From an uncultured Clostridia bacterium (GTDB taxonomy: Bacteria > Bacillota > Clostridia > Oscillospirales > Ruminococcaceae), in assembly GCA_947627205.1 (NCBI GenBank), contig CANQVE010000008.1:6944-70943 (forward strand): a stretch of 64,000 nt of DNA. Direction: 5' to 3'. Every line of letters starts with the position of its first letter. Position 1 is the stretch's first letter. A program made the position numbers and the translations under genes. Below, one piece after another: positions 6,621 to 57,804 of this stretch. The notes beneath the pieces are model-generated. The model was given only the letters and a program-made list of their open reading frames with translations. It did no database searches and was not told the DNA's origin.

Positions 6621-6843
6621 CAAGTATACAGTGTACAGTGGATAGTGTACAGCATTGGTGTCCTCTTCGCGGACAGTATTTAGATTGTTTTAAGTCGATA
6701 GGCACACGAACAACCTTTTATGGGTACATTTTAAAACGTTTCGGTTTGATAACAATCAAAAATGTCCGCATAGCGTTTTGCGCGAAGCGCATAATGCGTG
6801 GACAACCATAACTGACTACTTTACACTTTACACTGTATACTGT
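6621..6843. repeat. Heptamer-ended palindromic interspersed repeat, copy A
   Basis: Ends AGTATACAGTGTACAGTG / CACTTTACACTGTATACT; core TAGATTGTTTTAAGTCGATAGGCACAC...AAAACGTTT...GATAACAATC shared with 10904-11130 (inverted) and 27322-27522. Confidence 0.8.
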
Positions 6844-6845
6844 GT

Positions 6846-7466
6846 CTAGATGGTGAAATCAAAAAACTCTTTTCCTTTCACCTCAAACCCGACATTTCCC
6901 GAACAGGCGTCTGTGAGTTCTGTTCTGAGCTTTTCCGAAAGCTCCTCTTTTACATAAACGGCGAGCTTAACGCCGTTTCCGAAATCCTCGTCTGCAATCT
7001 TTGCGCCCAGCTCGTCAAATATCCTCGCTAACTTCCCGTAAAACGAATAGTCTACGGTTATCTCGGTTTTCACCGCAAAAGCCATTTCCTTTATCTTCGC
7101 CATTCCCACGGCGTCCGCGGCGGCTTTCGTATACGCTCTCACAAGCCCGCCCGCGCCGAGCAGTATCCCGCCGAAATACCTCGTAACAACACAGCATACC
7201 CCGCTTAAACCCTCTTTTTGCAATACTTCGTATATCGGCACACCCGCCGTTCCTTGGGGTTCGCCGTCGTCCGAGTGACGGGAGGTCTTGTCCGTCAGAA
7301 TATACGCATAGCAGTTGTGGCGAGCCTTTCGGTTCGCCGCGCGTATTTCGTTTATAAATGCCGTCGCTTCTTCTTCGCTCGAAACGGGCGCAAGATAGCC
7401 TATAAACTCCGACTTCTTTTCCTCAAACCGTGACACAACGCGGCTTTCAATTGTCCTGTATTCCAT
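6846..7466 (-). CDS. yigZ: YigZ/IMPACT family protein
   Basis: EEKKSEFIG, ARHNCYAY, SDDGEPQGTAGVP, VVTRYFGGILLGAGGLVRAY. Confidence 0.9.
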   Translation of the reverse strand: MEYRTIESRVVSRFEEKKSEFIGYLAPVSSEEEATAFINEIRAANRKARHNCYAYILTDKTSRHSDDGEPQGTAGVPIYEVLQKEGLSGVCCVVTRYFGGILLGAGGLVRAYTKAAADAVGMAKIKEMAFAVKTEITVDYSFYGKLARIFDELGAKIADEDFGNGVKLAVYVKEELSEKLRTELTDACSGNVGFEVKGKEFFDFTI

Positions 7467-7567
7467 TTTACTCCTCGGGATATAACAAATTCACGCGCAT
7501 CACAAGACGCGCGTGAGCTTGTTTATAAACAAAATTAACAAAACGATATGAGCGTTTTAATACCAAA

Positions 7568-7771
7568 TTACTTTCCGAGATTATAACGCTTATTAAATCT
7601 GTCAACGCGTCCGCCGCTGTCAACGAGCTTCTGCTTGCCCGTGAAGAAAGGGTGGCACTTTGAGCAAATTTCAACTCTTATGTCTTTTTTGGTGGAACGT
7701 GTTTCAATAACGTTTCCGCAGGCACATCTGATAGTTGTCGCTTCGTATGCGGGATGAATACCCTCTTTCAT
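7568..7771 (-). CDS. rpmE: 50S ribosomal protein L31 (Zn-binding type)
   Basis: MKEGIHP...CACG...[30 protein letters not shown]; ATG at 7771 behind a GAGGTG RBS. Confidence 0.95.
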
Positions 7772-7892
7772 TCTTCTCACCTCACAAAAATATGCTGTGC
7801 ATAAATCACAAAAACAATTATAACATATTTGCCCCGAAAAATCAAGGGAATTTCAAAAAATATTATTATGTTATAATATACAAATTATTCCG

Positions 7893-9895: not shown

Positions 9896-10906
9896 ATGCT
9901 TCCGCGTGAAAGGACCGAACAAAACGAGAAAATTTTACTTAGCGAATATGCCTGCCGCGCGGATATGTCAAAGGGGCGCGCTTTTTATGAAAAGCCCTGC
10001 GACCTGCGGACGGATTTCCAGCGCGACCGCGACCGCATAATCCACTGCAACTCCTTTCGCAGGCTCAAACGAAAAACGCAGGTCTTTCTTGATCCCCTCG
10101 GCGACCACTATCGAACGCGTCTGACGCATACCCTAGAAGTGAGCCAGATTGCAAGAACGGTTTCGAGAGCGCTCGGACTGAACGAAGATCTGACGGAGGC
10201 AATTGCTCTCGGTCACGATCTGGGGCATACTCCTTTCGGTCATGACGGCGAGAGGATTTTGAACGCCCTTATGAAAACAGGCTTCAGGCATAATCTCCAA
10301 AGCCGGCGTGTCTGCGAGAGGATAGAAAAAGACGGAAGCGGGCTTAATCTGACGTTCGAGGTGCTTGATGGGATAGCCGCCCACACGGGAAAGGAGCTTC
10401 CCGAAACGCGCGAGGGAATGGTCGTAAGATTTTGCGACAAGATAGCATACATAAACCACGACATCGAGGACGCGATACGCGGGGGAGTGATAACCGAAGA
10501 CATGCTCCCCGAATTCCCGATAAAGGTCCTCGGAAAAACAAAATCCGCGAGAATTTCGGCGCTTGTAAACAGCCTTGTGCAGAACAGCGGCGACGAGATA
10601 AAAATGGATTATACCACCCGAAAAGCTCACGACGAGCTGAGGGATTTTATGTTTGAAAAAGTCTACCGTTCTTCGAGGACCGTTGCCGAAAAAGGAAAAG
10701 CCGAGTTTATCATTGAGTATCTTTTCAGATATTTTTCCGAAAACAAGGACAAGCTCCCGAGACTGTACCTTGATATTTCCGAACAGGACGGTCTTGAAAG
10801 AGCGGTCGCGGATTTCATCAGCGGAATGACCGATGACTATGCCGTTGATTACTTTACTTCACTTTGCGTGCCTAAAAGCTGGAAGAACGGATATATAGAC
10901 AGCTGA
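9896..10906 (+). CDS. dgt: Deoxyguanosinetriphosphate triphosphohydrolase-like HD protein
   Basis: RTDFQRDRDRIIH, RRLKRKTQVF, RTRLTHTLEVSQ, LGHDLGHTPFGH, DFISGMTD. Confidence 0.9.
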   Translation: MLPRERTEQNEKILLSEYACRADMSKGRAFYEKPCDLRTDFQRDRDRIIHCNSFRRLKRKTQVFLDPLGDHYRTRLTHTLEVSQIARTVSRALGLNEDLTEAIALGHDLGHTPFGHDGERILNALMKTGFRHNLQSRRVCERIEKDGSGLNLTFEVLDGIAAHTGKELPETREGMVVRFCDKIAYINHDIEDAIRGGVITEDMLPEFPIKVLGKTKSARISALVNSLVQNSGDEIKMDYTTRKAHDELRDFMFEKVYRSSRTVAEKGKAEFIIEYLFRYFSENKDKLPRLYLDISEQDGLERAVADFISGMTDDYAVDYFTSLCVPKSWKNGYIDS

Positions 10907-11130
10907 CAGGGTACAGTGTACGCATTGAACGCTTCGCGTGCAACGCTGTATGCAGTAAAATATATCCGCCTTGCGGCGGATAATATTAGATTGTTATCGG
11001 ACTGAAACGTTTTGGAAACAACTGTAAGTATAGGTTCGTGTGCCTATTGACTTAAAACAATCAAATAATGTCCGCGAAGTGGACAACTACTACTGTACAC
11101 TGTACACTGTAAACTTTACACTGTAAACTG
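10904..11130. repeat. Heptamer-ended palindromic interspersed repeat, copy B (inside dgt-dnaG operon)
   Basis: TGACAGGGTACAGTGTAC...TATCCGCCTTGCGGCGGATA...TGTCCGCGAAGTGGACA...CTGTACACTGTACACTGTAAACT; core is the reverse complement of copy A. Confidence 0.8.
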
Positions 11131-11140
11131 ACGACAGGAG

Positions 11141-13090
11141 ATGATAACGACGGCGATTTCACCTGAATTTCAAAACTACCTCGACGAGCTTTGCCAAAAC
11201 AACGATATCTCTTCTGTTGCAACAGAACACGGTATCGCCGTAAAGCGTTCGGGAAACAATTATATGTGCTGTTGTCCGTTTCATACGGAGAAAACACCCT
11301 CCTGCCAGCTTTATCTTGAGGACAATCATTTCCACTGTTTCGGCTGCGGCGCACACGGAAACGTCATAAAGTTCCTTATGCAGGCAGAAAATATCGACTT
11401 TATGAACGCGGTAGAAATATTGTCCGACCGTGTCGGAATGACTATTCCCAAAAGAAGCGGGAAAAACAGCGGGTATAAAAAACGCCCCGCCTACAGTCAC
11501 AGCTCCGCCTCCAAAACAATTTCACATATCACATCTCCGCCCGAACCCGAACCGCCCCCCGAATACGAGCAGGCGCCCGATATTCCCGAGGATATCCCGC
11601 CAGAAAACATTCCGCCCGAAAATATCCCTCCCGACAGAAATGAGGAATATTATTTTCACAGCGGCGGATATTCAAAAAAAGAACGGATCTACCAAATGAA
11701 CAAGGCGGCGGGAAAATTTTTCCACGAACAGCTTTTCTCTCCCGACGGAAAAGCAGGTCTTGATTATTTTAAAGAACGCGGACTGAAGTATGAAACAATA
11801 AAGCGCTTCGGGCTGGGGTTTGCTGCGGACGATTATCACAAGCTCCACTATTATATGAAAAGCCTCGGATATACCGACGCAGAGCTTAAAGAAGCGGCGC
11901 TTATCACAACGCGCGACGGGAAAAAATATTATGACAAATTCCGAAACCGCGTTATGTTCCCCGTATTTGACGAGCGGGGGAGAGTCATTGCTTTCGGCGG
12001 CAGGATAATAACGAGCGATACAAAGGCTCCGAAATATTTAAACTCCGACGAAACGCCCATCTTTCAGAAACGAAAAACGCTTTTCGCACTCAATTATGCG
12101 AAGAAGTCAAAAGCGGATCATTTCATAATCTGCGAGGGATATATGGACGTTATCGCCATGCACCAGGCGGGTTTTGACAGCGCCGTGGCATCGCTCGGAA
12201 CAGCGGTCACCTCCGAACAGGCAGAGCTTCTTTCAAAACGCGGAAAGAAAAAAGCCGTTCTGTCATACGACTCGGACAGCGCAGGTCAAAAAGCTACTTC
12301 GAGAGCTATAGACCTGTTTATGCAGACGGCGTTTGAAAAAGTTACGGTGCTTAAAATATCGGGCGCAAAAGATCCCGACGAGTTTATAAAAAAATACGGC
12401 GGCGAGGCATTTTCCTTGCTTATAGACAATTCTATAGGCGCTGTCGTATTTGAAATGGAAAGGCTCTCGAACGGACTTAAAATGAACGATCCCGACGACA
12501 AAAACGTCTTTATTAGGCGAGCGGTCCGGTTTATGGCTGACATACATGATGATGCATTCAGAGAATTGTGCGCGGAAAAGGCGTCAATACTCGGAGATGT
12601 TTCAAAAAAGACGGTGCTTGACGGAGTAAACGAGCTTATCCAAAAAAAAGCTCCTTATCTGAAAAAAAAGCAGAATGACAATGCCGAAAGCCGCGCCGAA
12701 GAAGAAATGTACGACAGCGGTCTTAAAGGCGAGGAAAACGCCGAAACGGCGGTGTTGTCCTATCTGTTTCACAATCCCGACGAGATAACAAAGGTAGAAG
12801 AACAGCTTTCGGACGGACTTTTGACGGATTTCGGAAACGGCGCATATAAAACGCTTGTCGAAAAGATCCGGACAAGCAGCGGAGAATGTGAAATTTCATG
12901 GCTTTCCGAAAAATTCCCCGAAGAAAAGGGAAGAATAAACGATATCCAAAACGATACGATATATGCATTCAGCGAAGAATGTTTTCTTGAAGCAGCGGGA
13001 AAAATATCGGATATAAAACGTAAAAGGACAAGCGTCCACAATTTTGCGGATCTTGCAAATTATATCAAGTACAAACAAGGCGACGAATAG
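11141..13090 (+). CDS. dnaG: DNA primase with Pro/acidic linker insertion
   Basis: Zn finger CPFHTEKTPS...CFGC; DKFRNRVMFP, KYLNSDET, CEGYMDV, SYDSDSAGQKA TOPRIM motifs. Confidence 0.92.
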   Translation: MITTAISPEFQNYLDELCQNNDISSVATEHGIAVKRSGNNYMCCCPFHTEKTPSCQLYLEDNHFHCFGCGAHGNVIKFLMQAENIDFMNAVEILSDRVGMTIPKRSGKNSGYKKRPAYSHSSASKTISHITSPPEPEPPPEYEQAPDIPEDIPPENIPPENIPPDRNEEYYFHSGGYSKKERIYQMNKAAGKFFHEQLFSPDGKAGLDYFKERGLKYETIKRFGLGFAADDYHKLHYYMKSLGYTDAELKEAALITTRDGKKYYDKFRNRVMFPVFDERGRVIAFGGRIITSDTKAPKYLNSDETPIFQKRKTLFALNYAKKSKADHFIICEGYMDVIAMHQAGFDSAVASLGTAVTSEQAELLSKRGKKKAVLSYDSDSAGQKATSRAIDLFMQTAFEKVTVLKISGAKDPDEFIKKYGGEAFSLLIDNSIGAVVFEMERLSNGLKMNDPDDKNVFIRRAVRFMADIHDDAFRELCAEKASILGDVSKKTVLDGVNELIQKKAPYLKKKQNDNAESRAEEEMYDSGLKGEENAETAVLSYLFHNPDEITKVEEQLSDGLLTDFGNGAYKTLVEKIRTSSGECEISWLSEKFPEEKGRINDIQNDTIYAFSEECFLEAAGKISDIKRKRTSVHNFADLANYIKYKQGDE

Positions 13091-13186
13091 CCTTTATAAA
13101 ATGAAAGACAGTCTGTCGAGAAAGCCCCGGACGCTGACGCCGCAGATGGAGTTTTATCGTCAGACTGAAAAAGGAGAGAGATAATT

Positions 13187-15668: not shown

Positions 15669-15718
15669 ATGTTGTCCGGTGATAAAACGTTTTCTAAAGA
15701 GATAAAGAACACGAAATT

Positions 15719-15748
15719 GCAAGTATGCAGTGTACACTGTATACTGCC
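15719..15748. repeat. Minimal (ends-only) copy of the TACAGTG-heptamer palindrome
   Basis: GCAAGTATGCAGTGTACACTGTATACTGC: the two terminal arrays joined with no core. Confidence 0.55.
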
Positions 15749-15810
15749 TACACCGCAGTTTATTGGGATATTTATCCATAAATGCCTATAAATTCTTTTT
15801 AAATTTATAA

Positions 15811-16848: not shown

Positions 16849-17056
16849 CGCATTGAAGCCCGCCTTTACGGCGGGCTTCAACGTTGCACATTTGCCCTAA
16901 CGGCAATTCAATTTTGCTCGCTGTGCTCGCAAAACCGTAAAAATGCGCACTCCCCGAAAAGTGGTTTAGGTATATTGGGCAGAAAAATCTTTTTTGTAAA
17001 GGTTAGACATTTAGAAATAAGAGGTAAGAATTTGAGATTCTTACCTCTTATTTCTT
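16849..17056 (+). repeat. tRNA-abutting repeat element (copy 1)
   Basis: CGCATTGAAGCCCGCCTTTACGGCGGGCTTCAACG...CGCAAAACCGTAAAAATGCGCACT..CCGAAAAGTGGTTT...GTAAAGGTTAGACATTTAGAAATAAGA, homologous to 23243-23490. Confidence 0.8.
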
Positions 17057-17420
17057 TTATAACAAACTTGCTTTAATAAGGGAAACAAACTTTCGGCTTG
17101 AACTCTTACTTCTTATCTCTAACCTCTTACCTCTAAAAGCGCAATTCAATTTTGCTCGCTGCGCTCGCAAAACCGTAAAAATGCGCTGGCGTTGTTTTTC
17201 TTGGATAAGGTTTTTGAGGTAAAAATTTGTATCGAACGATTGTTCGCTCATTTCTTACCTCTTATTTCTTTTTTTATTCGTTAATTTCAGCAAACAACAT
17301 CTTGGCTCAAACTCTTACCTCTTACTTCTTACATCTTACCTCTAAAAGCGTAAAAATGCGCTGATGTTGCTTTTCTTGGATAAGGTTTTTGAGGTAAGAA
17401 TTTGTACCGAACAGATATTC
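17039..17420. repeat. Imperfect ~180-210 bp tandem duplication built from CTCTTAC/TAAGAGG heptamer arrays
   Basis: TTCTTACCTCTTATTTCTTTT, CTCTTACCTCTAAAAGCG and TTTCTTGGATAAGGTTTTTGAGGTAA each occur twice in the same order. Confidence 0.7.
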
Positions 17421-17469: not shown

Positions 17470-17584
17470 TTGACTTTTGCAGAAAATTGTTGTATAATAA
17501 TCGCAGAGCGATTATTATACATTTATGTCCATGCACATCCGCAAAATTTTTTACAAAATTTTGCTTCGTGCGGTAAGGGACATA
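17470..17584 (+). promoter_or_regulatory. Sigma-A promoter + long-hairpin leader cassette (copy 1)
   Basis: TTGACT-17-TATAAT (17470-17498), then TATGTCC..GCAC..GCAAAATTTT-TTAC-AAAATTTTGC..GTGCG..GGACATA; near-identical to 31738-31850. Confidence 0.75.
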
Positions 17585-18350: not shown

Positions 18351-18605
18351 TGCGCACATCATTTTCTCCTAGCGAAATTTTTAATAGATCCTCATTTAAA
18401 GGATATTTTATATTTCTTTTACAATAATTTATGATAAATATACAAATTACCGCCGAGAAATCGGCGGATTTTTATGCTTTTAGTATATTGCAATATATAG
18501 TACCTTGTGATATAATTAAACTGTATAGAAAGATATTGAAAATTCTTGTTATGCGCGGCAGGCAAAAAACGTCCTATATATTATTTTCTGCAAAAGGAGA
18601 AAACA

Positions 18606-19779: not shown

Positions 19780-20943
19780 ATGAAATATTTAAAACTTTCA
19801 TTATCTTCTATAGGAAAGAACAAACTTACATTTCTGCTCATTACCATTGAAATAGCTGTTCTTCTGCTCACTGTCAATTTTATGGTTTCAACTATTTCCG
19901 ACCGGCAAATGCTTACAAAGGGTTATGAGAAAATTTTGGGAGATAATTCGGCGTTTGTCTGGGATATCAATTTCACCCAAAATAAAATAAACGGTCTTGC
20001 GAATGATATGAAAGGATCGCGAGAGCTTATACTTTCCGACATAACGGATGAATATGAAATACACGAGGCTGTGTCGGTATATGCACACTTAATGAATGCA
20101 GACAACCTTATTGTGGTTTCCGATGAGATCTATGACAATCTGGCTTTACCTCTTGTGTCGGGAGATTATTCGGGAGCAATAGCAAGTTTTAATTATCCGA
20201 ACGACAATTGTTTCGGTTCATATAACGTAGATTATCAGGAAAAAGCTAAGGATTTCTACTTAACTATTTCGGGAAAACTTACTCCCGACACATACATTCC
20301 TCTTATGCGCTCATTCAGCAGTGCAAATGACTTTACGACCAAAGACCTTTATGTTGATTCAAGCGAACTTGACAACTTTGTAATTTGCAGAAAAAGCGAT
20401 CTTGAAGAGGAAGTATTGTCATATTGCGGAGTGTATGAAATGGGATTTATTATCCGCTTCCCCGAAAACTATGATGAGAACATAGCTAAACTCAAACAGA
20501 AAGCAGGCGTTCAAGAGGGCAAAGCGATCCTCGAAAACTCGCAAAAGGCTTTGTGGGAGGACTTGGCGGATTTCATTCCCGTTGTGATCTGCATTTTGCT
20601 TGTGGTAATAATCGGCACAATGAGCATTTCCATTATCTTAAACAAATACAATGAAAAACGCGGCGGGGTGCTTTGGATATGCGGTTTCAGCAGACGGCAA
20701 ATATTGTTCGCGCATTTTGTGAATATGCTTATAATTTTTGTTGTCGCGGCGATTTTGAGCGTAGGAGCATTTTTCATAATGTCGCTTTTGCAAATAGAAC
20801 TTGTCGTTTCGGCAAATCTTTCAATTGCAAATATAATAGCAACTGTCGCTCTGTCATTGATTTTGATTTTAGCGTCAATGATAATCCCGGCGATAAAGAG
20901 CAAAAACACTTCACCTGTTGAATATCTGAGGAGGGCGAAATAA
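19780..20943 (+). CDS. ABC transporter permease (FtsX/MacB-like)
   Basis: Same topology; KRGGVLWICGFSRRQI, C-terminal SPVEYLRR. Confidence 0.8.
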   Translation: MKYLKLSLSSIGKNKLTFLLITIEIAVLLLTVNFMVSTISDRQMLTKGYEKILGDNSAFVWDINFTQNKINGLANDMKGSRELILSDITDEYEIHEAVSVYAHLMNADNLIVVSDEIYDNLALPLVSGDYSGAIASFNYPNDNCFGSYNVDYQEKAKDFYLTISGKLTPDTYIPLMRSFSSANDFTTKDLYVDSSELDNFVICRKSDLEEEVLSYCGVYEMGFIIRFPENYDENIAKLKQKAGVQEGKAILENSQKALWEDLADFIPVVICILLVVIIGTMSISIILNKYNEKRGGVLWICGFSRRQILFAHFVNMLIIFVVAAILSVGAFFIMSLLQIELVVSANLSIANIIATVALSLILILASMIIPAIKSKNTSPVEYLRRAK

Positions 20944-21115
20944 AGTATACAGTTTACAATGTACAGTAAACAGCAAAGGTATCTGCTTCGCAGATGAAAT
21001 TTAGATTGTTTAAAATGACCGCAAACCGTTCGGCAGATTATGTCGATTTAATCTAAAAACAATCTAAATCCAAACATTAGTTCTAGCATCTAGCTTCTGA
21101 ATTTCTAGTTTCTAG
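20944..21115. repeat. Hybrid heptamer-ended repeat (TACAG left end, CTAG right end)
   Basis: AGTATACAGTTTACAATGTACAG..GTATCTGCTTCGCAGAT..TAGATTGTTT...AACAATCTA..TTCTAGCATCTAGCTTCTGAATTTCTAGTTTCTAG. Confidence 0.7.
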
Positions 21116-21127
21116 GAGGGCAAAAAA

Positions 21128-23242: not shown

Positions 23243-23490
23243 CGCATTGAAGCCCACCTTTACGGTGGGCTTCAACGCTGCGTATTTTTACTTTGAAATT
23301 CCCTAATGGAATTTCAATTTTGCTTCGCAAAACCGTAAAAATGCGCACTTCCCGAAAAGTGGTTTTAAATTATAACTTGCAAAAATCTTTTTTGTAAAGG
23401 TTAGACATTTAGAAATAAGATGTTAGAGGTAAGAGGTAAGAATCTAGCGTAACGGTGGTTAGCTAATTTATTCCTCTTATCTTTTTTTGT
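23243..23490 (+). repeat. tRNA-abutting repeat element (copy 2)
   Basis: CGCATTGAAGCCCACCTTTACGGTGGGCTTCAACG...; homologous to 16849-17056, ends in TTAGAGG/TAAGAGG heptamers. Confidence 0.8.
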
Positions 23491-25870: not shown

Positions 25871-26104
25871 ATTGCCGTTTCAAAGCACGGCTTTGAAACG
25901 GCAATGCGGGGAAAACTCTTGTTTTCCCCGCACCCTTTAGCGCTAAGAATCGTTATTGAGGGAAAACTTTTTTGAAAAAAAGTTTTCCCTCAAACTCCTT
26001 TTCAAAAAACTTTCGTGCGCCCGCCAGTTAGGCGGCTTGAACGGAAAAGCGCTTCGCCGCTCAAAACAAATTCTAGCCTCTAACTTCTAACCTCTAGCCT
26101 CTAG
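25871..26104. repeat. Cluster of three palindromes plus a CTCTAGC heptamer array
   Basis: ATTGCCGTTTCAAAGC/GCTTTGAAACGGCAAT; GCGGGGAAAAC/GTTTTCCCCGC; GAGGGAAAACTTTTT/AAAAAGTTTTCCCTC; TTCTAGCCTCTAACTTCTAACCTCTAGCCTCTAG. Confidence 0.7.
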
Positions 26105-26139
26105 ATGGGTTTTCCCCCTTGCGCGTCTTTGTGCCTGAA

Positions 26140-27228: not shown

Positions 27229-27321
27229 AGTTTTTCTCCTTAAAAGTGATATAAGAGAAAAATATTCTCTATCAATTATTATACACCATACACAGGAAAA
27301 TTTCAAGTGGGGAAATTGAAA

Positions 27322-27522
27322 AGTTTACAGTATACAGGGTACAGTATGCAGTAGTAGGTATCCGCCTTACGGCGGATAAGATTTAGATCGTTTTTGAACA
27401 ATAGGCACACTAGCAAACTTTTATTGTTACGTTCCAAAACGTTTAAGTTTGATAACAATCCAAAATTATCCGCGAAGCGGATACCATAACTGACTACTGT
27501 CCGCTGTACCCTGTATACTTGC
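27322..27522. repeat. Heptamer-ended palindromic interspersed repeat, copy C
   Basis: TACAGTATACAGGGTACAGTATGCAG..TATCCGCCTTACGGCGGATA..ATAGGCACAC..AAAACGTTT..GATAACAATC..TATCCGCGAAGCGGATA..CTGTACCCTGTATACTTGC. Confidence 0.8.
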
Positions 27523-27526
27523 ATAT

Positions 27527-27557: not shown

Positions 27558-27559
27558 CT

Positions 27560-30035: not shown

Positions 30036-30070
30036 CTCTAGAGGTAAGAGGTTAAACTCTTGCCTCTAAC
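30036..30070. repeat. Short TAAGAGG-heptamer hairpin
   Basis: CTCTAGAGGTAAGAGGTTAAACTCTTGCCTCTAAC after the comEA stop. Confidence 0.55.
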
Positions 30071-30192
30071 CTTTTAAAACATTATACAAATTATTTCAGT
30101 CACACCCATACATGTATATTGTCGGATAAAAACCAAAAAACCGAATATCAACATACCTGTCTGCAATTAAATAAAGTTGTTTTATATTAAAA

Positions 30193-37253: not shown

Positions 37254-37318
37254 ATAAACACCCCTTTAAAATACTTGTCTATTTATATGCATACGGACAA
37301 GAAAATAGACCGTGTCGG

Positions 37319-37478
37319 CAGTATACAGTTGACGGGGTACAGTATCCAGTTAAGGTATCCGTTTCGCGGATAAAATAAAGATTATTTTATAATAAAAAGA
37401 GCGTAAACCTATCGCAGGCTTACGCTCTTTCCTCTAAAACTCTAGCCTCTTGCCTCTGAATTTCTAGCTTCTAGCTTC
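37319..37478. repeat. Hybrid heptamer-ended repeat (TACAG left end, CTAG right end)
   Basis: CAGTATACAG..GTACAGTATCCAG..GTATCCGTTTCGCGGATA..AAAAGAGCGTAAACCT..AGGCTTACGCTCTTTCCTCT..CTCTAGCCTCTTGCCTCTGAATTTCTAGCTTCTAGC. Confidence 0.75.
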
Positions 37479-38741
37479 CCACCAATCGCATACATAATAT
37501 TCCACATTACCGTTTATGGCGTTTACATAAATGATGTATTTCAAATCGTCATTCGTATTGTGACAGCGGAATTTCCAAACGGGAAAAGCCTTTTCAACGG
37601 AGCGGTCTGCTGCTCCTCCGGAATTTTCATTGTTTTCATCGTCTTCGCTTGCGGGATACATACCCGTATATATAAGCTCTGCTCTTGAAACCGACAATTC
37701 CATTTGCGAGGCAAGCTCTTTTTCCAATATCTTTACCGCGCCAGAAAATGAAATAACTTTGTCGTGAGAAGCCGTTTCTTTTGCGGTGTATCCGGAATAT
37801 CCTCCATGAAAACGCTCAAACTGTCCGTATTCCATCATAAATGCCTGAGGCATAAACAGATCATAATCGTGACTAAGTGCTTTTTCGCCGTACATGGATT
37901 GCCCTGCGCTGTCCGTAAATTCATAACTGTCGAATATAACGCCTTTATATGACGGAGTAAAAGTAAAATCAAAGCCGTATTTTCCGCCGCCGATGTCAAT
38001 TATTCTCACCTGATAAACTTCGGGTTTGAGATCGCCGCCCCAGCTGTAATTATATTCCGCCGTCATTTCTTTTGCCTTTTCGACTGCTTCTTTGACAGAC
38101 ACTTCTCTGTCAAGAAGAGCATATTTGTCTTCGGAATCAACGTTAAGATAGTTTTCAGCAACTTCAAAAAAGTTGGTCGGATCGTACATTGAAACGGATA
38201 TGTAGTCGGTAACGCCCGCTTGTTTTAGCAGGTCATCATGACTAAGACCGTATACGCCTGTGCCAAACAAAAATAACGTGAGATATGCCTTGTCGGTATC
38301 TACATATATCTGACCGAGTTTCTGTTCTCCGCTTTTGAGCTTGTCTATCCTGTTTTTCAAAAGCACTGTATCTTCGAGATAGTTTTCGCCGTTTTCGCCC
38401 TCATAGAGAACGCGGTATAGTGAGTCCTTATCTTCCTGCGTGTAAATATCGCCGAACTCTTTGTCAAAAATCTTGTCAAATTTATCGTAAAATTGCTGAA
38501 AATCAAAAGTTTCGGCAGTTAAAGTAAGGTCGTATACTACGTCGCTGTCGGGAATTTTTGCAACAAAATCATCACTCAAAGTGACGACTTTATATCCTGC
38601 GTTTTTAACTTCCTCTATCTGTTTATTAAGCTCATTGCGAAGATCGGATATTTTCTGGAGATCCTTTCCGCCTGTATCATCGCACCCGGGAATAAGCAGT
38701 ACTAGAACTATGCTGAGAATAATTGTTAATATTTTTTTCAT
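37464..38741 (-). CDS. Lipoprotein, paralog family member 4
   Basis: GGAGG RBS, MKKIL..LVLLIPG-C lipobox; C-terminal PVWKFRC.NTNDDLKYIIYVNAING motif. Confidence 0.8.
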   Translation of the reverse strand: MKKILTIILSIVLVLLIPGCDDTGGKDLQKISDLRNELNKQIEEVKNAGYKVVTLSDDFVAKIPDSDVVYDLTLTAETFDFQQFYDKFDKIFDKEFGDIYTQEDKDSLYRVLYEGENGENYLEDTVLLKNRIDKLKSGEQKLGQIYVDTDKAYLTLFLFGTGVYGLSHDDLLKQAGVTDYISVSMYDPTNFFEVAENYLNVDSEDKYALLDREVSVKEAVEKAKEMTAEYNYSWGGDLKPEVYQVRIIDIGGGKYGFDFTFTPSYKGVIFDSYEFTDSAGQSMYGEKALSHDYDLFMPQAFMMEYGQFERFHGGYSGYTAKETASHDKVISFSGAVKILEKELASQMELSVSRAELIYTGMYPASEDDENNENSGGAADRSVEKAFPVWKFRCHNTNDDLKYIIYVNAINGNVEYYVCDWWEARS

Positions 38742-42459: not shown

Positions 42460-42553
42460 AATGATTTTTCCTTTCGTGTTTAAAATTGTTGATAGAGTTG
42501 TAGTTTGCATAGTGTAAAATTAAATGACATCGCCCGTTATAGCAATAACTTTC

Positions 42554-43852: not shown

Positions 43853-43902
43853 GGTAGTTACCTCCTTAAATTTTTTCGGCATTTTATGACAATTTTAATT
43901 TC

Positions 43903-45210: not shown

Positions 45211-45423
45211 GGTAATTACCTCCTTAAATTTCTTTGGCATTTTATGCCGATTTTACTTAGTCGCTGTAAATGGTAAACTCTTCTGTTTTACCTGTGCCGT
45301 CGGTCAGCGAGAAAAACCATTTTTATCACCTCCGTTTTAAAAATTTTTTTCAGAGGATTATTTAGTCCTCTATAATATAAGACCTTTAAAAAAAATAGTT
45401 TTATACCATAACTATTATATTTT

Positions 45424-49836: not shown

Positions 49837-50067
49837 TTGCTTTATACGGCAATGATCATATTCGGTTGTTTTTAGCCAAGATGAATGAGAGTTTCAAAAG
49901 CATTTTTTCATTATTTATTATATCACAAGGTACCATATATTGCAATATACTTAAAGCATAAAAAACCGCCGAATATTCGGCAGTTTTTGTATATTTTATA
50001 CTATAAATTAACAGCGCCGCACGGACAGTATTCCGCGCGGCGTTTGTTTATGTAGGTTTTCTTATCC

Positions 50068-52840: not shown

Positions 52841-52910
52841 TTTTCTTCCTCCCTTAAAAGATGTAACTTTATAAGCGTTTACTCTTCCGCTCAAACACGT
52901 TGCCAGAGGG

Positions 52911-53176
52911 ATACAGTATACAGTGCATCTAGAAGCTGGAGATTAGAGACAAGAGGCTAGAATTTTAGAGGAGAGGTTATTCGATTTTCATAAGAATTCT
53001 AGCCTCTAGCCTCTTTATCCGAAAACTAAACAACTTTCCTTTCAAAAGTTCCCCGAAATTCTTATCTCTTACATCTTACTTCTTACCTCTAGCAGGATAG
53101 GGCGAGAAAACGTTATTTAGAAAGATAACGTTTAAAAAGAACCACTGCTAAATACTGCATACTGTCTACTGCATAC
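52911..53176. repeat. Composite/nested heptamer repeat (TACAG ends enclosing CTAG and CTCTTAC arrays)
   Basis: ATACAGTATACAGTG..CTAGAAGCTGGAGATTAGAGACAAGAGGCTAG..TTCTAGCCTCTAGCCTC..CTTATCTCTTACATCTTACTTCTTACCTCTAG..CTGCATACTGTCTACTGCATAC. Confidence 0.65.
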
Positions 53177-53340
53177 CGCCAACAGGTCTGATCAAACTAT
53201 ACACCGTAATTATACCACATTTAATGCTTTTCGTCAAGAGAAATATAGCATTGTTGAAAACTTTTTAATATATTTTGTCAAAAAACGGTTGAATACAAGT
53301 CTGATTTATGCTACAATATGAGAAAGGGGAGCATTTAAAT

Positions 53341-54735
53341 ATGAAATTCAGAATTATTGCCATTTTAATATTAGCTGTATTTATGTTTGCAGGGTGCGCA
53401 CAACAACGGGATATAAGCGAGCTTACTATATTTATCGCTGAAGAGAGCGGGTATGCAGGGAATAACAGTGATACGGAAAGTTCGAGCGAAGAGAGCGCGC
53501 CTGTGCTCGAGCCCGAAAAAAAGCCCGAAGAGCCCGAATATGCCGAATTTTTTAAGGAAATGAAAGTTCATACTCTTGAGCTTGAAATGGAACAAAAAGA
53601 TTGGAATTTCCTTTTGTATAACCCGTTTGCTAAACAATACAGAACAGCAAATGTAATTATTGACGGTGAAAGATATGACAACACCGCCATAAGGACGAGA
53701 GGAAATTCGACGCTTAAATCGGCTATAACAGAAAGCGGGATCTACCGCCCGCCGCTCAAGCTGAAGTTCGACAAGTATGTTGAGGACAGGACGTTTAAAG
53801 GGCTTGACGAGCTGGCGCTTTTAAATGTTGCGGGAGACAATTCTTATGCGCGCGAATATATAGGATATGAGGCGTTTCGTGTATTAGACCTGTGTGCGCC
53901 GTATGTTACATTCTTCAACATTTATATAAACGGAAAGCTCCACGGCTTTTATGTCGGAGTGGAAATAATAGACAACAGTTTTCTTGACCGCGTATTCGAC
54001 AGTCATAAGCACAGTCTGTATAAAGCCGACAACAATTCAACGCTTCTTACGAATATGGACTTTTCGGTTATGGAACAGAAAAAAGGAAGCGACACCAGCA
54101 AGACCGATCTAAAATATTTGACACAAGTCTTGGACGAAATGACGCTCGGCGAAAAGGGAAATATTGAGGATATACTTGACGTGGATTCGGTGCTGAAAAA
54201 TTTCGCGGTAAATGCCGTATTGCACAATTGGGACGACTATGCGGGATATTATGCTCATAACTATTATCTTTATCTGCATGACGGGAAGTTTTATTTTATC
54301 CCGTGGGATATGAACCAGATATGCTTTCAGTGGCAAAGACATTTTACCGACAGCGACGGCTCAAAGCAGGATATCATCACGCCCGTAACGGGAGGCGCTT
54401 CGGTCTCACAGCGCCCGCTGGTAAATAAGCTCCTTTCGGTAAATGAATATTATCTGAAGTATCTTGATTATTGCGAACAGCTTAATGCGTGGCTGAAAGA
54501 ACTTGACGAAAGCAATAGGCTCAATGATATAAAAGATATGCTGGACGAAAATGTAAAAAACGATCCCACCAGATATTACGGCTATTATGATTTCGTCCGT
54601 GAATTCAGCAAATCATATTCCTATGGGCTGGCTTATTTTATTCACGACCGCTCGGCTTATCTTACAAAACGGATAGAACAGATACGCACGGAAAACAAAA
54701 ATCCCATAACGGGCTTAGAGCTTATTGCGTCATAA
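53341..54735 (+). CDS. CotH kinase-family lipoprotein 1
   Basis: FMFAG-C lipobox; IRTRGNST, KLKFDKY, DNSYAREY, HNYYLY..GKFYFIPWDMN. Confidence 0.85.
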   Translation: MKFRIIAILILAVFMFAGCAQQRDISELTIFIAEESGYAGNNSDTESSSEESAPVLEPEKKPEEPEYAEFFKEMKVHTLELEMEQKDWNFLLYNPFAKQYRTANVIIDGERYDNTAIRTRGNSTLKSAITESGIYRPPLKLKFDKYVEDRTFKGLDELALLNVAGDNSYAREYIGYEAFRVLDLCAPYVTFFNIYINGKLHGFYVGVEIIDNSFLDRVFDSHKHSLYKADNNSTLLTNMDFSVMEQKKGSDTSKTDLKYLTQVLDEMTLGEKGNIEDILDVDSVLKNFAVNAVLHNWDDYAGYYAHNYYLYLHDGKFYFIPWDMNQICFQWQRHFTDSDGSKQDIITPVTGGASVSQRPLVNKLLSVNEYYLKYLDYCEQLNAWLKELDESNRLNDIKDMLDENVKNDPTRYYGYYDFVREFSKSYSYGLAYFIHDRSAYLTKRIEQIRTENKNPITGLELIAS

Positions 54736-54795
54736 TTCAATGCATTTACGGCACTATTATTCGTATATATGACTTACAGACTTTAAAGGAGCATT

Positions 54796-56145
54796 ATGAA
54801 AAAATTCCATGCACTAGCCTTGGCAATGACCGTGTTATTGCTGTCGGGGTGCCGCGGCAATACTAAAGATGTTCCGCTTGAACTGATAATAAGCAGTCAG
54901 GCAGAAAGCTCCGATACCGAAATAATTGACAATAATGATGATGAACCAAATTCGGGCTACGGCTTTTCCAAGGAAGAAAAGGAGCCCGAATATGTCGGTT
55001 TTTTCAAGGAAACAGCCGTTCATACCATAGATTTTCAAATGCCCGCTTCCGATTGGGACTATTTTATAAACCACCCTCTGGCAAAGACCTATAGAACTGT
55101 TGATGTTGTTATTGATGGCGAAATGTATGAAAACGCAGGTATACGCACAAGAGGGAATACTTCTCTTTTAGCATACATTGATTATACGAAAATGCGCCCG
55201 CCGTTTGAAATAAAATTCGATAAATATATCGACGGCAGGCTGTTTTTGGGACTTGACGAGCTTAGCCTTTTGAACGTTGTTGACGACAGAGCGTTTTTGC
55301 GCGATTACATCGGCTATGAAGCGTTCAGGGCAATAGACGGTTTTGCTCCTTATGTGACGTTTTTCAATATCACGGTAAACGGAAAACTTCACGGTCTGTA
55401 TGTCGGAGTTGAATCGGTTGACAGCAGTTTTCTTGACCGAGTTTTCAACAGCCATAAGCACAATCTTTATAAAAGCGAAACGCAGACAACGCTCCTGCCG
55501 ACTATGAGGAAAAGTGCAGTTTCCCAGCAAAAGGGGAGCGACGAGAGCAGAGCCGACCTTAATTACCTTATAAAAACGCTCGATACAATGAAGCTCGGTG
55601 AAAAGGAAAATATCGAGGACATTTTAGACGTGGATTCTGTCCTCAAATATCTCGCTGTAAATGCCGTATTGCATAATTGGGACAGCTATGCGGGATACTA
55701 TGCGCATAATTTTTACATGTATATAAACGACGGAAAATTTTATTTTATACCGTGGGATATGAACGAGGTATGCTTGCAATGGCAAAGGCAATATGAGCCG
55801 AGCGACGGCTCAAGGGAAGATATTGCTTCGCCCATAACGGGAGATATTTCCGTTTCACAGCGTCCTCTGGTAAATAAACTGCTCGCGGTAGACGAATATT
55901 ATAATAAGTATCTAGACTATTGTTCGATACTCAACGAATGGCTAAAGGGCATTGACGAAAGCGGTTGGCTGAATGATATGCATGATATGCTTGATGAATA
56001 TGTAAAAAACGATCCCACCAAATTCTATGACTATTCATCATTTAACAATCAGTTCAATAACGCCTATTATTACGGTATTTCATACTTTATCCACGACCGC
56101 ACGGCTTATCTCACAAAAAGGCTTAATGAGCTTCGCCGCGAATAA
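54796..56145 (+). CDS. CotH kinase-family lipoprotein 2
   Basis: LLLSG-C lipobox; GIRTRGNTS, HNFYMY..FIPWDMN. Confidence 0.85.
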   Translation: MKKFHALALAMTVLLLSGCRGNTKDVPLELIISSQAESSDTEIIDNNDDEPNSGYGFSKEEKEPEYVGFFKETAVHTIDFQMPASDWDYFINHPLAKTYRTVDVVIDGEMYENAGIRTRGNTSLLAYIDYTKMRPPFEIKFDKYIDGRLFLGLDELSLLNVVDDRAFLRDYIGYEAFRAIDGFAPYVTFFNITVNGKLHGLYVGVESVDSSFLDRVFNSHKHNLYKSETQTTLLPTMRKSAVSQQKGSDESRADLNYLIKTLDTMKLGEKENIEDILDVDSVLKYLAVNAVLHNWDSYAGYYAHNFYMYINDGKFYFIPWDMNEVCLQWQRQYEPSDGSREDIASPITGDISVSQRPLVNKLLAVDEYYNKYLDYCSILNEWLKGIDESGWLNDMHDMLDEYVKNDPTKFYDYSSFNNQFNNAYYYGISYFIHDRTAYLTKRLNELRRE

Positions 56146-56255
56146 AAATATTTTATTAAATTTTTCTGCAACTTTTTCGACATTAGAAAAGTATTTATTT
56201 TAGAAACGTCATTTGGAAATTTTATAAAAAGCTCGGAATTTATAAGGGGAAAATT

Positions 56256-57593
56256 ATGAAAAAAATACTTGTGGTATTCACTATATCTGCTTTGCTTTTG
56301 CTTTCGGGGTGCGGCAAGAGTGAAACAAGCTCCCTGCAGATAGAAATAAACAATACCGAGAGCGGCGGCTATGCCGAAGAAAACAGCGGCTATCCCTATG
56401 AAAACGTGCAAAGCAGCTCTGACTATTATCACGAAAACGAGCTTGAACAGCCCGAATATGCAGAGTTTTTTGAAGAAAAGAAAGTGCACAGGCTGGACAT
56501 AAGTATCACTTCGGAGGATTGGAGCGCGATATGCGCCGCGCCGCTGAACAAGGAATACAAAAGCGCGGATATAACGATAGACGGTGTGACAATAGAAACC
56601 TGCGGTCTTAAAACTCACGGAAATTCAACGCTCAATGAGGTGGTTAAAGCCGAAAAGACCTGTTTCCCGTTTAAAATTAAATTTGACAAGTACACCGAAA
56701 ACACATTTATGGGTTTGGACGAGCTTGTATTGTGCAACAATTATATAGACGTTTCATATACGAGACAGTATGCGGGGTATGAAGCATTCAGGGCGATAGG
56801 AAAAGACGCACCGTTATCCGCGTTTTTCAATGTCTATGTAAACGGTGAGCTTATGGGGCTTTATACGGGCGTAGAAGAAATAGACGACAGCTATCTCGAA
56901 CGCGTTTTCGGAAGTCACAAGCACAATCTCTACAAAGCGGACGAGATGGCGACGCTTGCGCCAAGTATGCCCTCATGGTCAATGAAGCAGAAAAATGGGA
57001 ACGACACAGCGGATCTTAAAAAGCTGGTAAAGGTCCTTGATGAAACGCCTCTCGGAGAAAAGGGAGAAATAGAAAGCGTGCTTGACGTGGATTCGGCGCT
57101 CGCGTATATTGCGGTAGGCGCGGTTATTCATCATTGCGACGGCTACGGCGGTTATTCGGCTCATAACTATTGTTTATATTTTAACGACGGAGTATTCTAC
57201 GTGTTGCCGTGGGATATGGACTTGTGTTTTTATCAGACGGGCTGGGGATTTTTGCCGAGCGAGGGAGCGCAGATGGATATTGCCGACGGGCTTACGGGAG
57301 CGGAGAATATAAAGGAGCGTCCGCTTATCCAAAAGCTCCTGGCGGTAGACGAGTATTATGAAACGTATCTTGAATATTGCAAAGAAGCTCTCGAATGGCT
57401 CAAAGAGTATGACTTAAACGGAGCAGACGAGCTTTATGAACTTATCGGCGAGAGCGTTAAAAACGATCCGCGCGGGAAATACAACCTCTTTAACAGCGAG
57501 TTTAACCACACCTATCACTACGGCTTCGCGGGATATATAAGAGAGCGCGTGGCTTACCTCGAGAATAGATTAAATGAACTTGCAGGCAGTTGA
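56256..57593 (+). CDS. CotH kinase-family lipoprotein 3
   Basis: LLLSG-C lipobox; GLKTHGNST, HNYCLY..VLPWDMD. Confidence 0.85.
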   Translation: MKKILVVFTISALLLLSGCGKSETSSLQIEINNTESGGYAEENSGYPYENVQSSSDYYHENELEQPEYAEFFEEKKVHRLDISITSEDWSAICAAPLNKEYKSADITIDGVTIETCGLKTHGNSTLNEVVKAEKTCFPFKIKFDKYTENTFMGLDELVLCNNYIDVSYTRQYAGYEAFRAIGKDAPLSAFFNVYVNGELMGLYTGVEEIDDSYLERVFGSHKHNLYKADEMATLAPSMPSWSMKQKNGNDTADLKKLVKVLDETPLGEKGEIESVLDVDSALAYIAVGAVIHHCDGYGGYSAHNYCLYFNDGVFYVLPWDMDLCFYQTGWGFLPSEGAQMDIADGLTGAENIKERPLIQKLLAVDEYYETYLEYCKEALEWLKEYDLNGADELYELIGESVKNDPRGKYNLFNSEFNHTYHYGFAGYIRERVAYLENRLNELAGS

Positions 57594-57804
57594 CAGGGTA
57601 CAGGGTACAGTATGCAGTAGTAAGTGTCCGCCTTTCGGCGGACATTTTTTAGATTGTTCAATAATTAAAAGAGCGTAAGCCTGTGAAAGGTTTACGCTCT
57701 TTCCTCTTAACACAATTTAAATATTATCCGCGAAGCGGATACCTAAACTGACTACTGTCCACTGTACACAGCGTTGCACGCGAAGCGTTCAATGCGTATA
57801 CTGA
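57591..57804. repeat. Heptamer-ended palindromic interspersed repeat, copy D (alternative core)
   Basis: TGACAGGGTACAGGGTACAGTATGCAG..TGTCCGCCTTTCGGCGGACA..AAAAGAGCGTAAGCCT..AGGTTTACGCTCTTT..TATCCGCGAAGCGGATA..CAGCGTTGCACGCGAAGCGTTCAATGCGTATACTG. Confidence 0.8.

Follow-up and report, generated by a model that had tools for sequence, protein, structure and literature searches.

What are the palindromic repeats with heptamer-array ends that recur through the 64-kb window (the whole stretch of clostridial DNA analysed here), and how did they spread between its genes? A sequence-only reading had listed eight copies, and all of them are present (Table 1); its description of a mix-and-match build is also borne out, as the modules recombine freely across copies. 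A full copy is 190-225 nt long and consists of two inverted ends of ~68 nt around an exchangeable core; each end has 4-7 CAGTnnA heptads, then a 7-8-bp GC hairpin, and then TTTAGATTGTT. The arm ends are fuzzy and often run on into CTGTTGT-like units, and many right arms have TAACTGA itself as their innermost unit. As for the cores, alternatives exist, as proposed, and their count is at least three rather than at least two: core 1 is about 60 nt long, core 2 is a hairpin of 12 bp (AGAGCGTAAACC/GGTTTACGCTCT) that looks like a two-way terminator, and core 3 is represented in the window by a single copy.

Two corrections concern whole copies: the copy at 15719 is made of two fused arms only, lacking both hairpin and core, and that at 52911 is a nested composite. 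Two copies were said to have one heptamer type on one side and the second on the other; in positional order, these are the copies at 20944 and 37319, whereas both sides of the copy at 27322 are of TACAGTG type. The core 1 of copy B is oriented opposite to those of copies A and E, and the right arm of copy B has 7 heptads. Further CTCTTAC/CTCTAGC-type arrays lie elsewhere in the window; the first cluster of these belongs to the same module pool as the element copies, and the palindromic modules of the block at 25780-26106 recur in related loci.

Table 1. Repeat copies, M cassettes and type-2 arrays in the window (positions from its first letter).
Feature	Position	Strand	Description
Copy A	6617..6850	.	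full; CAGTnnA arms both sides; left hairpin 6659-6675; core 1
Copy B	10897..11140	.	full; M cassette in left arm; hairpins 10963-10982 and 11069-11085
Copy C	15715..15760	.	heptad arms only, left and right joined head to head (AGTATGCAGTGTAC to ACTGTATACT)
Copy D	20941..21120	.	hybrid: type-1 arm, hairpin 20980-20996, TAGATTGTT, core 3, AACAATCTA, type-2 (TTCTAGC) array
Copy E	27317..27525	.	full; hairpins 27359-27378 and 27467-27483; core 1
Copy F	37317..37480	.	hybrid: type-1 arm, hairpin 37356-37372, core 2 hairpin 37396-37430, type-2 array
Copy G	52905..53185	.	nested composite: short outer type-1 arms around inverted type-2 arrays and AACGTTAT...ATAACGTT palindrome module
Copy H	57584..57808	.	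full; hairpins 57625-57644 and 57725-57741; core 2 57668-57702; M cassette in right arm
M cassette, copy B left arm	10922..10947	+	GCATTGAACGC-TTC-GCGTGCAACGC(T), at AC^T junction
M cassette, copy H right arm	57770..57795	-	orientation relative to arm as in copy B
M-type variant	6772..6797	-	GCATTATGCGC-TTC-GCGCAAAACGCT, in loop of copy A right small hairpin
Type-2 (CTCTTAC / TAAGAGG) array cluster	16995..17343	.	tandemly duplicated units 3' of tRNA; arrays 16995-17060, 17100-17136, 17308-17343
Type-2 array (TAAGAGG)	23405..23441	.	3' of second tRNA
Type-2 array (TCTAGCC)	26068..26106	.	closes block of other palindromic modules
Short inverted type-2 unit pair	30037..30075	.	CTCTAGAGGTAAGAGG...CTCTTGCCTCTAACC

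The heptad-array pattern ACAGNNNACAGNNNNCAG has 9 matches in the window, against 0.00 in 100 shuffles, and TAGATTGTT has 5, against 0.62 in shuffles; these motifs are not due to chance. A profile search with the 68-nt end gave 10 hits in the window, an unselected stretch of 64 kb; with 14 related loci added (164 kb in all), the number rose to 53. The small hairpin with compensatory variants, already pointed out from the sequence, is real: it is 95.1% paired, compared with 91.0 +/- 0.6% after shuffling of the 3' arms, 0/5000 shuffles reaching the observed figure, and compensatory pair switches occur at 5/7 positions. One A-T/G-C switch dominates this covariation (31 vs 11), and it may mark two subfamilies, not many independent events. 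Whole copies, folded against dinucleotide shuffles, give z-scores from -5 to -25; the arms belonging to a given copy were tested for covariation with each other and show none.

A second, smaller unit, M, is a hairpin cassette of 25-26 nt, found at varied depths in the arms and also in hairpin loops, with one case of an M lying inside another; in 13/13 cases it has an AC^T junction and a single orientation relative to its host arm. Alternatively, the AC and T could be part of the module, inherited with arm variants. In copy A, the right hairpin is broken by a 26-nt M-type cassette. A CGCATTGAACGCTTCGCGTGCAACGCTG module had been reported as shared in inverted form by two copies; the sharing holds, but the pair consists of the copies at 10904 and 57591, with a variant inside the right hairpin of the 6621 copy.

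As for its distribution, the family is seen only in a narrow clade, namely the genome of the window and at least five rabbit-gut "Lapin" MAG species (Clostridia), and copies lie on other contigs, beyond this region. It was not found in JGI metagenomes, IMG/VR, plasmids, phages or Rfam, and the literature yielded no matching paper, in keeping with the initial view that the family is undescribed. The M and hairpin modules reach a summed depth in metagenome contigs 25-50x that of the flanking genes. The core type is genome-specific, with core 2 in 11/11 copies of Lapin-033 and core 1 in 16/16 copies of three other MAGs, which could reflect gene conversion instead of transposition. An assembly artefact, or a repeat limited to a single contig, has next to no probability: assemblies of short metagenome reads are prone to breaks and mis-joins at repeats, and several Logan contigs do terminate at the element, but the independent assemblies of ENA and NCBI contain identical structures, and the structure of copy E recurs in contigs of three independent DNA runs, from three studies, with 0-5 differences across the span.

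Orthologous sites show the elements to be a derived and variable state. The spacer between the HD-dGTPase gene and dnaG (the site of copy B) is 43 nt in a more distant relative at 84% protein identity and 12 nt in another at 76%, neither of which has heptad arrays within 11 kb; a relative with 87% TrpA identity has a plain terminator alone after trpA. Relative to such outgroups the elements are insertions, and the copies are not fixed at orthologous sites across distant relatives. Close relatives, in turn, reshuffle modules rapidly. In a sister genome, ~94% identical in genes, the HD-dnaG copy has the same left end and an inverted core that retains an idiosyncratic 19-nt middle (17/19 bases); its right hairpin has been swapped out, and its right arm has 6 heptads, against 7 in the window. 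The same genome has different modules at the sites of copies A and C, and a 267-nt composite absent from the window at 9867. A strain encoding an identical HD-dGTPase protein has no M and a different left arm, and in one with 96% TrpA identity the trpA-site copy has another arm and a doubly compensated hairpin, TGTCTGC/GCAGACA. Finally, L007 and L008 have opposite core orientations at two orthologous sites.

Such changes raise the question of whether a dedicated enzyme is needed, since palindromes could be self-generated, with heptads growing by replication slippage and hairpins copied by template switching or illegitimate recombination. Differences of whole heptads between orthologous copies and arm-only remnants such as copy C agree with this proposal, and flipped orientations and 60-nt tracts replaced in patches match recombination among inverted repeats; nevertheless, one and the same 68-nt end, with its position-specific heptad variants, is found at dozens of unrelated sites spread over at least six genomes, whole composites look like clean insertions, and the M cassettes obey a strict junction and orientation rule, all of which makes the proposal very improbable.

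Only slightly better placed, and still improbable, are ordinary MITEs, i.e., deletion derivatives of a DDE-type insertion sequence that move by cut-and-paste via ~68-nt terminal inverted repeats. Long terminal inverted repeats, a size of ~200 nt, high copy number and no coding capacity would fit, and arms that evolve independently are expected of protein-binding ends. However, target-site duplication is absent, the longest flanking direct repeat having a mean of 2.1 nt vs 1.94 +/- 0.24 in controls, and no full-length partner with the same ends was found in the 164 kb, IMG/VR, plasmids or phages. Moreover, in place of a defined terminus the ends (CAGTATACAGTG...-type) have graded arrays of heptads that vary in length, the conservation of the subterminal hairpin concerns its structure and not its sequence, and the nested 25-nt cassettes are too small for DDE ends.

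Regarding their position relative to genes, 27/52 outer ends face a stop codon, and 12 of those overlap it or lie within 10 nt. In the window, the right end of copy A adjoins the UPF0029 gene stop codon (6846); copy B provides the HD-dGTPase gene with its TGA stop and places an AGGAG ahead of the dnaG start; copy D begins at the TAA stop of an FtsX-like gene and its array terminates in the ribosome-binding site of an ABC ATPase gene, CTAGGAGGG; a CTAG in the array of copy F is the stop of a minus-strand 429-aa gene; and copy H, between the convergent cotH and trpA, provides the cotH TGA stop. This preference for sites directly after stop codons, along with the donated stops and ribosome-binding sites, would suit structural or regulatory elements selected by the host (terminators, mRNA 3'-end stabilisers, translation-coupling signals or arrays bound by an abundant nucleic-acid-binding protein) and kept alike by gene conversion rather than transposition. 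Likewise, the clade has a core 2 element after trpA where the outgroup has its plain terminator, some small hairpins with the TTTAGATTGTT tail pass a terminator scan, hairpin pairing is conserved, one low-depth RNA contig spans copy E, and the published TAACTGA and GGGAATC arrays, similarly placed, were proposed to be regulatory (PMC4679880, PMC4692102). Against host selection, the sites are unconserved, with other modules, other orientations or nothing in close relatives, and the outgroups do without the elements; core 2 fails the terminator scan; the two arms do not covary; elements also lie within operons and in divergent promoter regions; and spread to new sites would still require a transfer mechanism. 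Such a role is unlikely overall, even if it is the most plausible of the alternatives considered.

Among known systems, of which BOX, REP/REPIN and STRR had already been named as parallels from the sequence, the REP/BIME/REPIN sequences of Proteobacteria, with their RAYT transposases (PMC3116915, PMC3337134), are alike in being short, GC-rich extragenic hairpins of high copy number, often in inverted pairs around a spacer; they also form mosaics with linker motifs, make no target duplications, lie mostly 3' of genes, and are vertically inherited and lineage-specific. Here, by contrast, the hairpin is flanked by CAGTnnA heptad arrays, GTAG, the REP hallmark, is not invariant (near only 24/48 hairpins), the arms of one copy are uncorrelated, and the host is a Firmicute. 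Intergenic tandem 7-nt units are shared with cyanobacterial STRR, with TAACTGA (MacGregor 2015, PMC4679880) and with the GGGAATC repeats of Xanthomonas, which form about 70 convergent pairs (Rehm 2015, PMC4692102); these also lie close to where the upstream ORF ends or shortly ahead of start codons, and some form inverted pairs. The arrays described here differ in having few units (3-7), which are imperfect and vary according to position, and in always being within a larger element with hairpin, TTTAGATTGTT and core. Pneumococcal BOX and enterobacterial ERIC/IRU are similarly modular with variable internal units, are co-transcribed with their neighbours and form long stem-loops, but no sequence relation was seen, BOX modules are 45-59 nt and not heptads, and the nested 25-nt cassette has no counterpart. 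As for IS200/IS605 ends with their PATE derivatives and IS607-family ends (PMC6188088), they too have subterminal hairpins or short repeats, no simple terminus and no target duplication, and the insertion point of IS608-type elements is 3' of a short sequence that is fixed, much as M follows AC; unlike the present elements, whose ends are inverted copies of each other, they lack terminal inverted repeats and are strand-asymmetric. A Pfam scan of the 30 window ORFs found no transposase or recombinase, as had been stated of the window, and the 20 ORFs adjoining copies in related loci include no mobilising enzyme; neither tnpA nor tnpB was seen in either set. These results weigh against a mobile origin, as does the failure of any clean filled-vs-empty pair with near-identical flanks to turn up for a full type-1 copy, whose termini and target are accordingly provisional.

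In conclusion, the elements are probably lineage-specific, non-coding and non-autonomous mosaic palindromic repeats that have spread among the intergenic regions of a small rabbit-gut Oscillospiraceae clade and are moved in trans. Each end would be an independent module, two of them bracketing, in inverted orientation, an exchangeable core. The enzyme moving the copies, or the small hairpin cassettes inside them, would recognise structure and have its gene elsewhere in the genome; the best analogy for it is a single-strand HUH/Y1 enzyme of RAYT or IS200/IS605 type, and the second option a serine transposase binding subterminal repeats, as in IS607. After insertion, ectopic recombination among the many copies, which can pair in either orientation because their ends are inverted, would account for core flips, arm swaps and changes in heptad number. 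The family is real, abundant and fast-changing, similar in kind to E. coli REP/BIME, within the broader REP/BIME/MITE class, and apparently undescribed so far; once in place, its elements may be passive parts of transcripts from which genes can gain stop codons, ribosome-binding sites and terminator-like hairpins.

The heptad-armed repeats are a real, abundant and dynamic family, akin in kind to REP, BIME and MITE elements and apparently undescribed so far. The eight copies with modular palindromic architecture claimed by the sequence-only reading are all present in the places where it had put them, and their motifs are far above chance: the heptad-array pattern ACAGNNNACAGNNNNCAG had 9 matches in the window and none in 100 shuffles, the motif TAGATTGTT had 5 matches versus 0.62 in shuffles, and a search with a profile derived from ten clean ends located 10 ends in the window. 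The host is an uncultured Oscillospiraceae, the name carried by homologues with 73–84% identity, and an ENA rabbit-gut contig is 99.99% identical to the window; genome-wide statements rest on the window, on related loci from public collections and on metagenome contigs.

Heptad-armed repeat copies and other features, with positions in the window unless a related locus (L) is named
Feature	Position	Strand	Remark
Copy A	6617–6850		
Copy B	10897–11140		
Copy C	15715–15760		
Copy D	20941–21120		
Copy E	27317–27525		
Copy F	37317–37480		
Copy G	52905–53185		
Copy H	57584–57808		
Small hairpins passing the terminator scan	10963–10982; 11069–11085; 57622–57647		with T-rich tail
Further type-2 heptad arrays	26068; 30037		others near both tRNAs
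Insertion at the dnaG/rpoD junction	13079–13166		88 nt
ORF-free block adjoining copy E	27527–28190	minus	
6S RNA match	28719–28913	plus	RF00013
Post-tRNA module	16850–16960; 23240–23350		~110 nt, common to the 3' side of both tRNA genes
Direct repeat	17492–17582; 31760–31850		91 nt, 91% identity, upstream of two unrelated genes
Inverted repeat	18449–18541; 49892–49984		93 nt, 81% complementarity, arms 31 kb apart
Accompanying palindromic modules	25780–26106; L036 1100–1700; L018 3200–5900		
Tandem paralogous genes	41137–45240; 53308–57593		two sets of three genes
Composite after trpA	L038 3790–4110		GCA_947629335.1

Regarding the anatomy, the elements are 183–226 nt long, have no coding capacity and, as in MITEs, are small and bounded by inverted ends, here of ~68 nt, for which alignment gave the consensus cAGTatACAGtGtACAgTGtACAGTAttCAGTtatgG-TaTCCGC-tTc-GCGGAta-atatTTAGATTGTT. 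The arm array consists of four to seven CAGTnnA units whose variants are position-specific; the outermost heptads are degenerate and often run on as CTGTTGT, while TAACTGA is the common innermost unit of right arms. Between the two inverted ends lie the cores, bounded by TTTAGATTGTT and AACAATCTAAA: core 1 is ~60 nt and was found in both orientations, core 2 is a hairpin (AGAGCGTAAACC/GGTTTACGCTCT), and core 3 occurs once. Hybrids with a type-2 array (CTCTAGC/CTCTTAC heptads) on one side are represented by copies D and F, and recur in other genomes.

The small GC hairpin that follows each arm has a 7–8-bp stem and a 3–4-nt loop, and its conservation as a structure is read from the alignment of 48 ends: 95.1% of stem positions are paired versus 91.0 ± 0.6% with the 3' arms shuffled, the observed pairing being reached in none of 5000 shuffles, and the pair switches at five of the seven positions (TATCCGC/GCGGATA, TGTCCGC/GCGGACA, TATCTGC/GCAGATG, TGTTCAC/GTGAACG, ACCCGCC/GGCGGGT). 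Like REP sequences, it is a short, GC-rich, imperfect palindrome at high extragenic copy number. The folding z-scores of whole copies range from −5 to −25. Selection on the long stem was nevertheless dropped, because the left and right arms within a copy resemble each other no more closely than arms taken from different copies (identity 0.78 within a copy, 0.79–0.81 between copies; permutation p 0.68–0.95), so that the long stem is a by-product of the inverted ends and is not itself selected. Strand-specific folding was also discarded: by eye, the T.G wobbles of both ends had seemed biased towards the inward-reading strand, and once aligned the hairpin mismatches gave no strand preference (8 T.G versus 5 A.C).

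Nested in the arms or in hairpin loops is a second hairpin, the cassette M (a module already remarked on by the sequence-only reading), of 25–26 nt (GCATT-stem-loop-stem-AACGC; n = 13 in the window and the related sequence examined), with a conserved frame and an inner stem that varies with compensation. All 13 cassettes are preceded by AC and followed by T, and all have one orientation relative to the inward-reading arm; their depth in the arm varies, two were found in one arm, others occupy the small hairpin's loop (copy A; related locus L018), and one lies within another M. A strain with an identical HD-dGTPase protein has copy B without M, its arm differing also at several positions. In a further locus, L038, a composite bounded by CAGACTGTATAAAAAG / CTTTATCTACAGTCT ends includes two cassettes of M type, in which the small GC hairpin's sequence (GCATTATCCGCC...GGCGGATAA) forms the inner stem; this connects the M module with that of the small hairpin. 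A bolder reading of these cassettes, which we consider rather improbable, is that the true mobile units are ultra-small hairpins (the 25-nt M, perhaps the small GC hairpins too), placed by a structure-specific enzyme at AC^T junctions inside heptad arrays or hairpin loops, in one orientation and without duplication; the heptad arrays would then be landing pads or enzyme-binding platforms, and the ~200-nt elements accretions from repeated nested insertion and recombination. If true, this would be mobile DNA of a kind undescribed in Firmicutes, and smaller than every known transposable unit.

The data fit a lineage-specific, non-autonomous, recently active repeat family. The sequence-only reading had left to a genome-wide BLASTN search whether copies exist beyond this region, and they do: BLAST gave 35 copies across the window and the loci of rabbit-gut Clostridia MAGs (Lapin), and in a further Lapin MAG (GCA_947629335.1) related modules follow trpA. 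When 185,579 species genomes were scanned once for a 20-base pattern of the ends, only four species matched, all of them rabbit MAGs named 'uncultured Clostridia bacterium Lapin-...'. In rabbit metagenome contigs, the summed depth of M and the hairpin is 25–50 times that of flanking genes, which indicates that near-identical copies are numerous in the community, though they need not belong to a single genome. Five JGI metagenome matches were rejected as chance 19-mers; the viral scan of IMG/VR gave no heptad repeats, the plasmid and phage collections gave no match, and the literature gave no described equivalent in Clostridia or other Firmicutes. A cmscan of the window against Rfam (gathering score; E ≤ 1) matched no repeat copy, the Gut-1 RNA motif (RF01706) included; it found only two tRNAs, a sub-threshold 6S and a weak, chance-level snoRNA sR44 (E 0.22), none of them within repeat copies. 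The 6S match covers the full model with 43.6 bits versus a gathering score of 46.4 (E 1.8e-5), and the locus is probably a 6S RNA gene.

As for turnover, the comparison of orthologous intergenic sites proposed by the sequence-only reading found distant relatives to be devoid of arrays or to carry a plain terminator. The HD-dGTPase/dnaG spacer measures 43 nt in a relative with 84% protein identity and 12 nt in one with 76%, and both lack heptad arrays across 11 kb; in the lineage of the window, the last two HD-dGTPase codons are replaced by copy B, which gives a TGA stop and an AGGAG before dnaG. After trpA, an 87% relative has the plain terminator, and in a 96% strain the element is present, its arm being a different one and its hairpin doubly compensated. 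The sister Lapin-011_bin37, whose genes are ~94% identical to those of the window, has the same left end at the HD-dGTPase/dnaG site, M included, a different right hairpin, six right-arm heptads versus seven, and an inverted core that yet keeps the private 19-nt middle (17/19). Elsewhere the sister carries a 267-nt composite of known modules with ends CAGACTGTAGATAAAG/CTTTTATACAGACAG where the window is empty, and wholly different modules at sites A and C. The related loci L007 and L008, with flanks ~95–100% identical, share two sites at which right ends and junctions are conserved and the cores are different and in opposite orientation. Across genomes, core 2 accounts for all 11 copies in Lapin-033 and core 1 for all 16 in three other MAGs. 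The window has, in addition, the 88-nt insertion at the dnaG/rpoD junction: it is absent from the sister and from the 84% relative, is unique among the sequence examined, carries the dnaG stop codon, and has inverted ends, CAGTCTGTCGAGAAAG / TTTTATCGTCAGACTG, similar to the CAGACTGTAGATAAAG module that ends other composites.

A fast programmed inversion switch of the core was rejected. Copy E has one orientation in contigs from three DNA runs; at copy B, run X6 gave one 'opposite strands' joint, in which one side has 32 nt with 90% likeness and is most simply explained as a unitig that stems from a different copy. The copy-B core shares the private 19-nt middle with the sister's inverted core, but overall it is not the nearest to it (likeness 0.80, versus 0.90 for a copy from another species). 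At the two sites of L007 and L008 the cores are different copies, so that replacement occurred, not simple inversion. In the mechanism that we propose, the family, whose ends are independent modules, would spread without target duplication, landing or surviving mainly at gene 3' ends; after insertion, recombination among copies may reshuffle the modules, and the inverted ends would let a donor copy pair with a recipient either way round, which would explain core flips that come with sequence replacement, with no need of an invertase.

Regarding insertion, no target-site duplication was detected in 17 full copies (mean longest flanking direct repeat 2.1 nt versus 1.94 ± 0.24 in mismatched controls) or at the 267-nt and 88-nt insertions, and the full copies have no common left flank. 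Outer ends face a stop codon in 27 of 52 cases, 12 of them at most 10 nt away or overlapping it, and a start codon in 14 of 52, mostly more than 60 nt off. An intrinsic terminator is a GC-rich hairpin directly followed by a T-rich tract; three small hairpins passed the scan for this arrangement, whereas most of them, and core 2, failed it, and the promoter scan of the arms gave weak 9-of-12 matches only. In RNA-seq, one contig runs across copy E, with low depth, adjoining a very highly expressed RNA, and other copies occur in RNA contigs too; these are assembled contigs, they lack strand information, and DNA may be included in them. The ORF-free block adjoining copy E has a contig depth of ~940 in one run versus 0–17 over the neighbouring gene and copy E; it has no Rfam match, and it fits a highly expressed non-coding RNA.

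In agreement with the earlier claim that the window encodes no mobilising enzyme, neither a transposase nor a recombinase was found among its 30 ORFs, nor among 20 ORFs adjoining copies in related loci; these 50 ORFs include no RAYT, and the loci examined, IMG/VR, plasmids and phages yielded no autonomous partner IS that shares these ends. An autonomous element in L019, where two ends lie 1.4 kb apart, was rejected: between them lie a lipoprotein-like ORF and one of 146 aa that matches nothing in Pfam, neither recognisable as a transposase.

REP/REPIN systems have GTAG (CTAC) at the hairpin foot, inverted REP pairs with correlated arms, and a RAYT (Y1 HUH transposase) gene that has the repeats on its flanks. 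Here the layout is likewise inverted, but the arms are uncorrelated, and just 24 of 48 ends have GTAG in the 20 nt on the 5' side of the hairpin, as a variant of a heptad (CAGTAGT) that does not adjoin the stem; membership of REP/REPIN therefore fails. MITEs of DDE insertion sequences combine terminal inverted repeats, small size and lack of coding capacity with a target-site duplication and an autonomous partner IS, and membership of the DDE-type MITEs fails on the absence of duplication. PATEs, derived from IS200/IS605, carry subterminal hairpins, make no duplication, and insert on one strand at the 3' side of a tetra- or pentanucleotide that is fixed; here the hairpins and the lack of duplication agree with this, M invariably follows AC, the full copies have no common left flank, and the ends are inverted, not direct. 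STRR, TAACTGA and GGGAATC arrays are intergenic tandem iterations, near-perfect, of one 7-nt unit; the period-7 arrays confirmed here are short (3–7 units), imperfect and embedded in a larger conserved end. The heptad arms tie this family to those arrays, whose function is unexplained (PMC4679880, PMC4692102). By analogy, a single-strand, structure-recognising HUH enzyme would be a candidate mover, because the subterminal hairpin is conserved in structure, duplication is lacking, and M obeys a strict rule of junction and orientation; a second lead may be an IS607-like enzyme, a type that binds subterminal repeats (PMC6188088).

Other repeats accompany the family. The post-tRNA module is composed of a GC hairpin, CAATTTTGCTCGC...AAAACCGTAAAAATGCGCACT and CCCGAAAAGTGGTTT, and it is also found in related loci (L019, L036), adjoining type-2 heptad arrays. 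The 91-nt direct repeat, possibly a leader or operator common to both genes, has a 14-bp AT-rich hairpin (TGTATAATAATCGC...GCGATTATTATACA) within it; the 93-nt inverted repeat contains a bidirectional terminator-like hairpin, CCGCCGAGAAATCGGCGG. Palindromic module families such as GGGGAAAACTCTTGTTTTCCCC, GAGGGAAAACTTTTTTGAAAAAAAGTTTTCCCTC and CCCCTTCCCCGAAGGGGAAGGGGG occur alongside the heptad elements and occupy some intergenic regions of 300–750 nt. As for the paralogous genes, the last one of the second set matches the CotH kinase family (Pfam), and it is the only member of that set covered by the Pfam scan.

In conclusion, an uncultured clade of gut Firmicutes unites REP-like hairpins and heptamer arrays in a single element; to our knowledge, REP/REPIN-type repeats are almost exclusive to Proteobacteria, and the heptamer arrays of cyanobacteria, Beggiatoaceae and Xanthomonas have stood for decades without explanation. 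The repeats break short-read assemblies of such MAGs and might be used as strain markers. Since their turnover (insertions, flips, arm swaps and nested hairpin cassettes) is visible between genomes ~94% identical, the clade is a natural system in which to look for the enzyme that moves them, the purpose of the heptad arrays, and the extent to which gene ends, with their stop codons, ribosome-binding sites and terminators, are rewired.
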